In this document: in pieces, positions 27,698 through 46,079 of the stretch | Layout: each line of letters starts with the position of its first letter | Numbering within the stretch: position 1 is the first letter of the stretch | Source of the DNA: Escherichia coli | GTDB taxonomy: Bacteria; Pseudomonadota; Gammaproteobacteria; Enterobacterales; Enterobacteriaceae | Length of the DNA stretch: 64,000 nt | NCBI RefSeq assembly: GCF_003019035.1 | Contig: NZ_CP027447.1 | Strand: one strand, 5' to 3' | The notes under the pieces: generated by a model | Databases searched by the model: none | Seen by the model: only the letters and a program-made list of their open reading frames with translations | What the model was told of the DNA's origin: nothing | Position numbers and translations under genes: made by a program

Positions 27698-27784
27698 AAA
27701 TCCCGACCCTGAGGGGGTCGGGATGAAACTTGCTTAAGCAAGAAGCACTTAAAAAATTCGTTACACCAGGAAATCTGATGTGTT
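27698..27784 (-). ncRNA. dsrA: DsrA small regulatory RNA
   Basis: minus-strand 87 nt AACACATCAGATTTCCTGGTGTAACG...CCCGACCCCCTCAGGGTCGGGATTT matches DsrA as I recall it, ending in its terminator hairpin. Confidence 0.92.
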
Positions 27785-35955: not shown

Positions 35956-36185
35956 ATTGGATGAGCCAGTCAAGACTCAATCATTTTTTGAACAAATAGA
36001 TAATTTTTGCGCAACGGCAATAATTACCGGAAAAACAGCAATAAAGATTTATTATTATCTATGGTAATGGTTTTATTAATTCACCTAAACAATATATTAG
36101 CACCGAATTCAATTATACCTTTTTTGATTTCTGTGTCATGATAACCCCGTTATTAGCCTTTTATCGTCTTGTTTATATTTTTTGG

Positions 36186-36209
36186 GCCGGCATGATGCCG
36201 GCTTTTTTT
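36186..36209 (+). terminator. orphan intrinsic terminator-like hairpin
   Basis: gccggcatgatgccggc followed by seven T on the plus strand; no annotated plus-strand gene upstream. Confidence 0.4.
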
Positions 36210-36371
36210 ATGTCTTCATTAATGTGCGCGTGATCACATCAGCCGTTTAGCGCAGCAATCATTGATACTTCCTATCTTTCCAATCAACTCATAACATATT
36301 GATATATATTCATAATCTTCATGAATATTTATATCTAGAATTCATAATTTTGAATTATATTAAATAGATTA

Positions 36372-36412
36372 GAAACATTTTGAAATCTTTTAAATACATT
36401 TGTTACATGTAA
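36372..36412 (+). promoter_or_regulatory. OmpR-box-like AT-rich repeats upstream of the porin gene
   Basis: gaaacattttgaaatcttttaaatacatttgttacatgtaat resembles ompC/ompF OmpR sites (TTTACATTTTGAAACATCTA-type); by eye only. Confidence 0.35.
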
Positions 36413-36520
36413 TCCTTAAAATAAAATGAACTTCATAGAATAGTATCCAAATGTGCTTTTTTTTGGATAACGGCACTTATTGATATATTCATGAAGATTA
36501 TAATCACAAGGGAATACATA

Positions 36521-37636
36521 ATGAAAAGAAAAGTTCTGGCAATGCTGGTCCCGGCGTTATTAGTTGCTGGCGCAGCAAATGCGGCTGAAATTTATAATAA
36601 AGATGGCAATAAAGTTGATTTCTACGGCAAGATGGTTGGCGAACGCATCTGGTCAAATACTGATGATAATAACAGCGAAAACGAAGATACATCCTATGCT
36701 CGTTTCGGTGTTAAAGGTGAAACCCAAATCACCAGCGAACTGACTGGTTTCGGTCAGTTTGAATACAACCTCGACGCCAGCAAACCTGAAGGTGAAAACC
36801 AGGAAAAAACCCGTTTAACCTTCGCCGGTTTGAAATATAACGAGTTAGGATCATTTGACTATGGCCGTAACTACGGTGTTGCTTATGATGCCGCAGCTTA
36901 TACCGATATGTTAGTTGAATGGGGTGGCGATTCCTGGGCTTCCGCTGACAACTTCATGAATGGTCGTACCAACGGTGTTGCAACCTACCGTAACTATGAT
37001 TTCTTTGGCCTGGTTGATGGTCTTGATTTTGCGATTCAGTACCAAGGCAAAAACAGCAACCGTAGCACTAAGAAACAAAATGGTGACGGCTATGCGTTGT
37101 CTGTAGACTATAACATCAATGGTTTTGGTATCGTTGGTGCATATAGCAAATCTGATCGCACCAACGATCAAGTTGCCGATGGAAACGGTTCAAATGCTGA
37201 ACTGTGGTCATTGGCTGCAAAGTATGACGCGAACAATGTCTACGCAGCTGTAATGTACGGTGAAACTCGTAATATGACTCCGGGTTCTATTGATACAGGT
37301 GTTGCCGATCGAGAAGGCAATACAATAATGCGTGATCAACTTATCAATGAAACCCAGAACTTTGAAGCGGTTGTTCAGTATCAATTCGACTTTGGTCTGC
37401 GTCCGTCCTTAGGTTATGTGTATTCTAAAGGTAAAGATATCAAAGGTGTACCTGGACATAGATATGTTGACGCTGACCGTGTGAACTACATTGAAGTTGG
37501 TACCTGGTACTACTTCAATAAGAACATGAACGTTTATACTGCATACAAATTCAACATGCTGGATAAAGATGACGCCGCCATTACTGGCGCAGCAGCTGAT
37601 GACCAGTTTGCAGTTGGTATCGTCTACCAGTTCTAA
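36521..37636 (+). CDS. yedS: OmpC/OmpF/PhoE-family general porin (yedS position, intact)
   Basis: signal peptide [22 protein letters not shown]-terminal ...VGIVYQF; 371 aa from ATG 36521 with SD aaggga. Confidence 0.88.
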
Positions 37637-37678
37637 TCAGCCAACGCGCCGCGGCGTGTTACTGTAAAACTTAACAAT

Positions 37679-37716
37679 AGCCTGAGTTCGTCCCTCATCG
37701 AACTCAGGCTTTTTTA
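37679..37716 (+). terminator. intrinsic terminator of the porin gene
   Basis: 12-bp stem agcctgagttcg / cgaactcaggct followed by a T-run. Confidence 0.65.
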
Positions 37717-38227
37717 TTGGCATTTCATCTCGATCTGCGGCGCACGCAATTGCCAAAGCATATCGATACAGCACCTTACCCCGCCCCCCTGGCTCAATAA
37801 AATCTACCAGCGTCTCTTCCAGCCAACACCCAAATGCATTTCTTTATAAATTTAATCTGTAACAAAACCGCTTCCCATATAGAAATATTTGCAAAAATAG
37901 TGCATGAAAAAAGCTTTTTCTCTGCCAATCCGGGATATAAATATTCATCCGTACCACAATATTCCACAGCACTAAATCTCTCCCCGCCCCCCCGGACTTC
38001 TGATAATGGTCTAAAATCATTGAGGCCACTTGCGACGACGTTGCTCAATAAGGAAAATTTGGCGTGAATAATATTCAACACCAGTGCAGCATCATCATTA
38101 CATACTTACACCCGCCGACTACCGCTTTCGATATATTGACTCAATTTTCCAGCCTGGTTAAAAATAGCGACCAGCTCAGTCGCAAATATAGTGACTACCC
38201 TAACTAAGCAACAATAAGGAATACACT

Positions 38228-45494: not shown

Positions 45495-46079
45495 TTACTC
45501 CCTGACAGGGTTCGTAGGCCACTCAATATCAGGTGCAGTTGATGTATCAACACGGTTCAGCAACACCCGATACTTCTTCCAGGCTTCCAGCAACGAGTTT
45601 TCTTCCTCCGTTGCAATTTCCAGATCTACAGCATCCTGAAGCGGCGCAATATGCTCACTGGCTACCTGCATCAGGCTTTTTTTTGTTTCTTCCGCCTCCC
45701 GGATCCGGAACAGTTTTTCTGCTTCCGTATCCTTCACCCAGGCTGTGCCGTTCCACTTCTGATATTCCCCTCCCGGCGATAACCAGGTAACATTTTCCGG
45801 TAACGGACCGAGTTCAGAAATAAATAACGCGTCGCCGGAAGCCACGTCATAGACGGTTTTACCCCGATGGTCTTCAACGAGATGCCACGATGCCTCATCA
45901 CTGTTGAAAACAGCCACAAAGCCAGCCGGAATATCTGGCGGTGCAATATCGGTACTGTTTGCAGGCAGACCGGTATGAGGCGGAATGTATGCATCACCTT
46001 CACCAATAAATTCACTGGTTCCGGCCAGCAGATTATAAATTTTTATGGTCCGTGGTTGTTCACTCATTCTGAATGCCAT
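45495..46079 (-). CDS. tfa: tail fiber assembly protein (lambda Tfa-like)
   Basis: 194 aa, matches lambda Tfa as I recall it. Confidence 0.9.

Follow-up and report, generated by a model that had tools for sequence, protein, structure and literature searches.

Results

The window examined here is a 64,000-nucleotide stretch of Escherichia coli DNA (NCBI RefSeq assembly GCF_003019035.1, contig NZ_CP027447.1), and the gene in question is a porin gene at the site that carries yedS in K-12 (36521-37636, plus strand; coordinates are those of the window and include the stop codon). An open reading frame (ORF) spans 36491-37636 (+), and its in-frame ATG at 36521 opens 371 codons with a single terminal stop. 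This start is supported by the residues MKRKVL, with which every homolog compared begins, and a Shine-Dalgarno sequence (AAGGGA, 36508-36513, +) can be read in the sequence 7 nt 5' of the ATG. Furthermore, in the complete E. coli genome CFSAN061771, which is 100% identical over the region, the Prokaryotic Genome Annotation Pipeline (PGAP) annotates exactly the same coding sequence as 'porin' (WP_000824355.1). A first-pass annotation, made from the sequence alone, had described an uninterrupted 371-residue frame between yedR and hchA and had allowed for a frameshift or stop that it might have missed; we looked for such a lesion and found none, and the frame is intact. PGAP places drpB, the present name of yedR (PMC7648144), upstream and hchA downstream of the porin gene, and the proposed position holds as well.

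The translated protein matched the Pfam family Porin_1 (PF00267) over the full model (positions 1-337 of 337), with an E-value of 2.1e-118 and 396 bits against a cut-off of 23.7, and this match is therefore far beyond chance. As had been claimed, the signal peptide is typical: codons 36521-36583 (+) specify a Sec signal with an A-x-A site and the mature start AEIYNK, as read from the translation. The C-terminus, VYQF, provides the terminal aromatic residue for outer-membrane assembly. A terminator scan placed a strong intrinsic terminator of the porin gene, with a 12-bp stem, 7 GC pairs and a T-run, at about 37679-37716 (+). In K-12, the equivalent position is occupied by a pseudogene (b1964-b1966); its annotation reads 'frameshifted; internal stop' and an in-frame TAG is visible in the alignment, in agreement with the first-pass annotation.

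Alignment of the locus to K-12 demonstrated 98-100% identity, up to about 36590, in the flanks, promoter-proximal region, 5' untranslated region (UTR) and signal-peptide codons. Beyond this point identity in the mature coding part falls to ~40-80% per 100 nt and several indels occur; near-identity resumes at the last codons. Because near-identical flanks and signal peptide adjoin a diverged mature part, the window gene cannot be described as K-12 yedS minus its lesions. Sliding identity against seven other alleles was 100% as far as about 36600, dropped there to 10-80% and came back up at about 37600-37650, and these boundaries were the same for every allele class. They delimit a variable cassette, the mature-porin coding part, at 36600-37620 (+/- 30 nt, plus strand). 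The region 36350-36600 was 96-100% conserved across all classes, with 100% DNA identity in 36500-36600, and the signal peptide was identical in all E. coli class representatives.

Taking the window allele as class I (371 aa), we distinguished class I' (357 aa, 90% identical to I), class II (352 aa, 67%), class III or K-12 type (395-397 aa, 62%) and class IV (387 aa, 62% identical to I and 71% to III). Intact K-12-type alleles of 397 aa exist, for example in strain 4238, whose cassette is 93.9% DNA-identical to K-12. In terms of protein identity, the divergence among classes is comparable to that among OmpF, OmpC, PhoE and OmpN. When identity was resolved by topology, classes I and III shared 63% of residues in strands and turns, 76% in the constriction loop L3 and 39% in the external loops, and classes I and I' shared 96%, 100% and 67%, respectively. 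The latter pair differs by a 14-residue indel in L6, an extended external loop of the window protein (precursor residues about 252-277, 37274-37351, +) that is 33% identical to its I' counterpart, with 14 gapped columns in the protein alignment. Synonymous divergence (dS) of the cassette ranged from 1.5 to saturated between classes (1.47 for class I vs the K-12 type, 0.56 for I vs I'), and in ten flanking genes of the window strain and K-12 it was 0.05-0.13. The ratio of nonsynonymous to synonymous divergence (dN/dS) was 0.07-0.21 against every relative compared.

Taken together, these comparisons indicate that the E. coli slot holds about five interchangeable, anciently diverged cassettes behind one conserved expression module. 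The window gene is yedS by position, as judged by its flanks, upstream region, signal peptide and the neighboring small RNA (sRNA) gene rseX. By sequence it is not the ortholog of K-12 yedS (62% protein identity, dS 1.47, and membership of a clade with 97.5% bootstrap that excludes classes III and IV). The 'yedS-type' label given in the first pass is thus correct for position, upstream region and signal peptide, and wrong for the sequence, which comes from another porin lineage.

The protein had also been labeled a member of the OmpC family, and on this point our results differ: it is OmpF/OmpK35-like, not OmpC-like. Among solved structures, Klebsiella OmpK35 was the closest by sequence (E 9e-145); Omp35/PhoE and OmpF came next and OmpC-type porins ranked below them, and identity to K-12 OmpC was 57.5%. 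The comparison with OmpC, OmpF and PhoE that had been proposed together with the K-12 alignment gave scores below every NCBIfam cut-off, namely 450 bits against 583 for OmpF (NF007446, an equivalog model), 417 against 484 for OmpC (NF007841, a subfamily model) and 414 against 599 for PhoE. The L3 motif is VEWGGD, as in OmpK35, and reads PEFGGD in OmpF, OmpC, PhoE, OmpN and the K-12-type alleles.

An AlphaFold2 model built on a 38-sequence alignment (predicted local distance difference test score, pLDDT, 76; predicted template modeling score, pTM, 0.73) consisted of beta-barrel strands plus short L3 helices and is consistent, at moderate confidence, with a 16-stranded barrel. The best Foldseek match was OmpK35 (5o77; TM-score 0.91, 63% identity), followed by OmpF (TM-score 0.88, 55% identity). 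Alignment to OmpF showed that the eyelet is fully kept: K16, R40, R77 and R128 lie opposite D108 and E112 (mature numbering), aligned to OmpF K16, R42, R82, R132, D113 and E117, and the GGD motif is retained as G114-G115-D116. L3 itself covers precursor residues about 115-152 (36855-36968, +), as placed by the OmpF alignment and the secondary structure of the model. OmpK35 and OmpF have the same eyelet charge constellation as the window porin; they differ from it in their asnS-aspC locus and far stronger codon bias, and the window porin has a longer L6 loop and no predicted MicF pairing. Since the pore-lining residues are kept and dN/dS is low, the window gene probably encodes a functional porin. 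In a separate observation, the class IV allele (L008:623-1786, WP_000824375.1; at 99% identity or more in each of its about 366 genomes) carries the changes R42 to E, R82 to K and E117 to V (OmpF numbering), which predict a pore with altered charge and selectivity.

To place the cassettes in the species, we searched the cassette cores in 5,426 complete E. coli genomes; the counts rest on bands of identity and coverage and are approximate. Class I was found in about 900 genomes at 95% identity or more (~17%), 775 of them at 99% or more, and includes sequence type (ST) 131. Class I' was present in about 720 genomes, class II in about 1,140, the class III family in about 1,660 and class IV in about 366; taken together, the five classes account for about 4,790 of the 4,890 genomes with the locus. 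The 90% cluster of the window protein comprised 1,321 member sequences, all named 'porin'. Five of seven sampled class I copies were intact (the window's strain, GPEC128-620, JJ1887, strain 736 and ST131 strain 4224; three are ST131-type), and the two disrupted ones, in ES6 and O15_8X, with a frameshift and, at the 3' end, a transposase, had both been chosen for their truncated coverage. Of the class III copies sampled, four were intact, and those of K-12, strain 142 and an O157:H7 strain carried frameshifts; outside class I, the majority of sampled copies were intact. These results demonstrate that an intact porin at this slot is the norm in E. coli and not unusual, and that the window gene is a catalogued, common member of a well-known kind of protein.

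Insertion sequence (IS) elements of the IS5 family and IS30, as well as partial transposases, lie directly 3' of the porin in several unrelated strains (L009:3070-3827; L010:2933-4354; L099:1234-1372), and in two class I strains such 3' insertions go with a truncated gene end.

We examined relatives in other genera by a scan of one genome per species. Those 65-78% identical to the window porin all adjoin yedJ/drpB, that is, they occupy the same slot (in Atlantibacter, Enterobacter, Citrobacter braakii, Kosakonia, Phytobacter, Leclercia, the K. oxytoca group, Raoultella and Silvania). At or below 65%, the relatives are true OmpF orthologs, K. pneumoniae OmpK35 (64%) among them, and their genes map between asnS and aspC. 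The E. fergusonii slot gene is 82-85% identical, and in a bootstrapped neighbor-joining tree the window allele, its sister allele I' and E. fergusonii formed a clade with 100% support. This clade belongs to a slot-specific lineage, here called lineage A, with 97.5% bootstrap and without classes III and IV; synteny in 22 loci plus E. fergusonii, the L3 motif and monophyly all place the window porin within it, and VEWGGD was also present in the Enterobacter and Citrobacter slot porins examined.

The nearest relatives of class IV outside E. coli, at 79-82%, were found in the Enterobacter cloacae complex, Lelliottia and Trabulsiella. They occupy the same yedA-vsr-dcm-yedJ-porin slot and group with class IV at 100% bootstrap, and the E. 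cloacae M-7 slot carries a lineage A porin instead of the class IV type. When the two types of Enterobacter locus were compared, the pattern was that seen in E. coli: the flanks were 80-90%, the signal-peptide region 90-92% and the mature part 33-80% identical. From the patterns in Escherichia and Enterobacter it follows that lineage A and the class IV lineage alternate in one slot in two genera, which may be due to a balanced polymorphism of long standing or to repeated exchange. The grouping of classes III and IV with each other was weak (59% bootstrap).

Two side observations concern other genomes and records. In E. fergusonii GCA_002965935.1 (L103:5163-6272), a second porin of 369 aa lies directly 3' of the slot porin; its signal peptide (MKKLTVAVSAVAASILMAMSAQA) resembles those of NmpC and OmpD, and the gene after it is a TrkH-family gene, not hchA. 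This second porin raised the idea that the cassettes arose as tandem paralogs, which is not supported: it has that different signal peptide and is only 57-59% identical to classes III and IV, and no second porin was found within 3 kb in the 22 other slot loci. In addition, two public records are likely mis-binned or mislabeled. The 2.1-kb contig of 'MAG: Collinsella sp.' (JAIJJM010000575.1, L015) is 100% identical to the E. coli locus (porin and start of hchA), and 'Chryseobacterium sp. 18061' (CACSKA010000002.1, L068) carries an enterobacterial asnS-ompF-aspC arrangement with an AsnS 93% identical to that of E. coli, on a contig nearly the same as that of Citrobacter sp. 18056 from the same study.

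The region 5' of the porin gene contains several candidate expression signals. The composition profile revealed an AT-rich upstream region at 36250-36500 (GC 0.20-0.27), a candidate target of H-NS silencing. Within it, a promoter scan gave a candidate -35/-10 pair (TTGTTA-16-TAAAAT, 36400-36427), and a motif scan gave a weak palindromic match to the OmpR-associated TGTWACAW that overlaps the candidate -35 (36400-36408). Further upstream lies rseX (36120-36209, +; Rfam RF01401, 97.8 bits against a gathering threshold of 50), directly 5' of the porin gene and with its own terminator at 36184-36204. Directly after this terminator we found a CRP-type palindrome, TGTGA-N6-GCACA (TGTGATCACGCGCACA, 36223-36238, minus strand). 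This palindrome corresponds to a site in K-12 (ggTGTGAtcaggcGCACAtta) at which an in-vitro CRP footprint has been attributed to yedS (2026 preprint, PMC12871828), and it may serve the porin gene. RNAduplex predicted no pairing of RseX with positions -70 to +45 of the window gene (z = -0.5 vs shuffled targets).

Codon usage of the window gene was intermediate (frequency of optimal codons, Fop, 0.67; effective number of codons, Nc, 43). It matches the quiescent OmpN (0.68 and 40), lies above the flanking genes (Fop 0.37-0.61), and is below OmpF (0.81) and OmpC (0.92). OmpN, a minor porin of the OmpN/OmpK37 type, is 59% identical to the window porin and differs from it in its uspF-ompN-nifJ locus and in its L3 motif. 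Each of the two genes has an sRNA gene as a neighbor, rseX in the case of the window porin and micC in the case of ompN, which micC adjoins.

It has been previously reported that Salmonella ompS1 is silenced by H-NS/StpA, derepressed by LeuO and dependent on OmpR (PMC4264507, PMC3586657), with a TGTWACAW motif in its upstream region (PMC3586657), and that rseX is repressed by H-NS and undetectable in wild type unless hns is removed (PMC8313858). OmpS1 is likewise a minor or quiescent porin behind an AT-rich region, and an OmpR-type motif is also found near the candidate promoter of the window gene. By analogy with these systems, the low GC content upstream of the window gene and its intermediate codon usage suggest conditional expression under H-NS silencing. 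The first-pass annotation had proposed an extra expressed general porin; the sequence points rather to a silenced gene that is expressed conditionally.

Variation was also seen on both sides of the porin gene. A second variable zone at 36000-36150, which reaches from upstream of rseX into its 5' end, occurs as two haplotypes that are 70-84% identical and, within RseX, differ in the 5' tail (36125-36128) and first hairpin loop (36143-36146). The haplotype does not follow the porin class: class III locus L009 has that of the window and class I' locus L003 does not. On the other side, strains differ to an unusual degree in the porin-hchA intergenic region (80-94% identity in 37750-37950), and PGAP predicts within it a 95-aa 'hypothetical protein' (WP_157698605.1, 37794-38081, minus strand). 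Elsewhere in the window we noted the DsrA sRNA (27698-27784, minus strand; Rfam, 102.5 bits) and an IS009 RNA element (45538-45736, minus strand; 223 bits); no tRNA genes were detected across the 64 kb.

Discussion

The explanation that we consider likely is that the window gene is a functional slot porin, probably silenced in the laboratory, and one of about five swapped cassettes. Its product would be a Sec-exported general-diffusion porin, a 16-stranded beta-barrel that is presumably trimeric. When made, it would be expected to admit small hydrophilic solutes, including beta-lactams, on account of the basic cluster K16/R40/R77/R128 that faces D108/E112 on L3. Low expression in the laboratory is probable, with the AT-rich upstream region silenced by H-NS/StpA and relieved in particular conditions, as Salmonella ompS1 and the adjacent rseX suggest. 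Cassettes I, I', II, III and IV would replace one another between two fixed boundaries, one past the signal-peptidase site and one at the last codons, and all would use one promoter, 5'UTR and signal peptide. We infer that selection by phages, colicins and antibodies keeps several cassettes in the population. An analogy exists with antigen genes of the fliC flagellin type, which likewise combine near-identical ends and flanks with a deeply diverged center and fall into discrete classes within one species; at the porin slot, unlike fliC, whole barrels differ and not just exposed domains, and at least two well-supported porin lineages are involved.

Several observations weigh against this explanation. 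The confidence of the AlphaFold2 model is only moderate. In the promoter scan, the count of sigma-70-like sites was not above that of shuffles, and TGTWACAW was not enriched in the window (7 matches vs 7.8 expected). RNAduplex of MicF(1-40) with -70 to +45 of the window gene gave a z of +0.4 vs shuffled sequences, compared with -4.5 for the MicF-ompF control. Moreover, the parallel with Salmonella ompS1 draws on literature statements that equate ompS1 with yedS (PMC2731931). Finally, the slot gene has become a pseudogene repeatedly (in K-12, O157:H7, strain 142, ES6 and O15_8X), which shows that the slot porin is dispensable.

These independent inactivations in several lineages, together with the AT-rich and probably silenced upstream region, a codon bias well under that of the major porins and a neighbor, RseX, that is undetectable in wild-type cells (PMC8313858), would also fit a cryptic gene that is intact yet permanently silent, physiologically irrelevant and heading towards a K-12-like pseudogene. 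We regard this as unlikely, because a dN/dS of 0.07-0.21 over saturated dS argues for sustained purifying selection, the eyelet is complete, hundreds of genomes carry the cassette in intact and nearly identical form, and a slot porin is conserved in many genera. In addition, papers that cite the 2013 work of Warner et al. ascribe a role in carbapenem susceptibility to YedS. Proteomics of O26:H11 Shiga toxin-producing E. coli detected a porin with '50% homology to YedS' (PMC9731836), a protein that could not be tied to the slot or to an allele class.

It is very unlikely that the yedS site recently acquired an OmpK35/OmpF-type gene by horizontal transfer from Klebsiella or Enterobacter. The best solved relative is indeed Klebsiella OmpK35, the GC content of the cassette (0.435) is below that of the flanking genes, and the boundaries with the flanks are sharp. 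However, no sampled species exceeds 78% identity other than E. fergusonii at 85%, the slot genes of Enterobacter, Citrobacter and Atlantibacter have diverged from the window gene to saturated dS, and true OmpK35 from the asnS-aspC locus is just 64% identical. With the identity ceiling among the species sampled outside Escherichia and the saturated dS, we ruled this possibility out; long residence in Escherichia is the better fit, since the closest relatives are positional orthologs and classes I and I' form a fully supported clade with E. fergusonii.

That the window gene might be the ancestral, unmutated form of the K-12 pseudogene, as the shared locus and the identical signal peptide and 5'UTR could suggest, is refuted by the alignment, by the 62% identity to intact K-12-type alleles of 397 aa (a difference of 26 residues, with another L3 motif) and by their position in another clade of the tree.

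The window porin and the YedS known from E. coli share the slot (drpB/rseX - porin - hchA), promoter-proximal region, 5'UTR, signal peptide and general porin family, and plausibly their regulation and a role as an alternative way in for beta-lactams. The K-12-type YedS differs from the window porin in its PEFGGD rather than VEWGGD motif, in its separate tree lineage and in its external loops, which are much shorter in the window porin. The intact YedS of a clinical isolate was reportedly linked to carbapenem entry by Warner et al. in 2013 (AAC 57:1935), and the same work is said to have named MicF as a YedS regulator.

We further propose, tentatively and as a possibility that may well need revision, that the slot is a trans-generic porin cassette locus. 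It would combine a fixed, silenced expression module with any of about five cassettes from at least two lineages, alternating in Escherichia and the Enterobacter cloacae complex, and would be maintained by frequency-dependent selection from phages, colicins or antibodies on a conditionally expressed surface protein, not by neutral drift or occasional transfer. The literature that we searched on yedS, ompS1 and porin diversity contained no description of cassette classes at this slot, although absence there is no proof of novelty. The yedS-yedR intergenic region has been used by one group as a host-source marker (PMC11267920), and the recombination-incongruent regions of Touchon et al. include ompA and ompC and not this locus (PMC2617782).

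The names in use obscure the relationships at this slot. PGAP calls the class III and IV slot genes 'ompC: porin OmpC', the K-12 and O157:H7 pseudogenes included (L002:5323-6515, L006, L007, L008, L009 and L100-L102), and the real ompC lies elsewhere (L012:12105-13208). In other sources, the proteins of these two classes go by 'yedS', 'outer membrane protein S1' or 'protein N'; in some databases the S1 label is attached to class III proteins, for which a protein search was dominated by E. coli and Shigella variants, and it was absent from the class I matches listed. As a consequence of the PGAP naming, annotation-based porin-loss pipelines can confuse the slot gene with the real ompC.

As an intact gene, the window porin has little significance, given that it is a catalogued and common protein of a thoroughly known kind. 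What the analysis adds, and what we find moderately interesting, is a slot that holds interchangeable, anciently diverged cassettes behind one expression module in at least two genera. It follows that 'yedS' is not one gene, and findings made with one allele, carbapenem entry for example, are not transferable to ~60%-identical cassettes with other external loops; class I is carried by ST131 and other clinically important clones. If the polymorphism is maintained by selection, the slot would offer a compact natural system for studying the pressure of phages, colicins and antibodies on a conditionally expressed surface protein.

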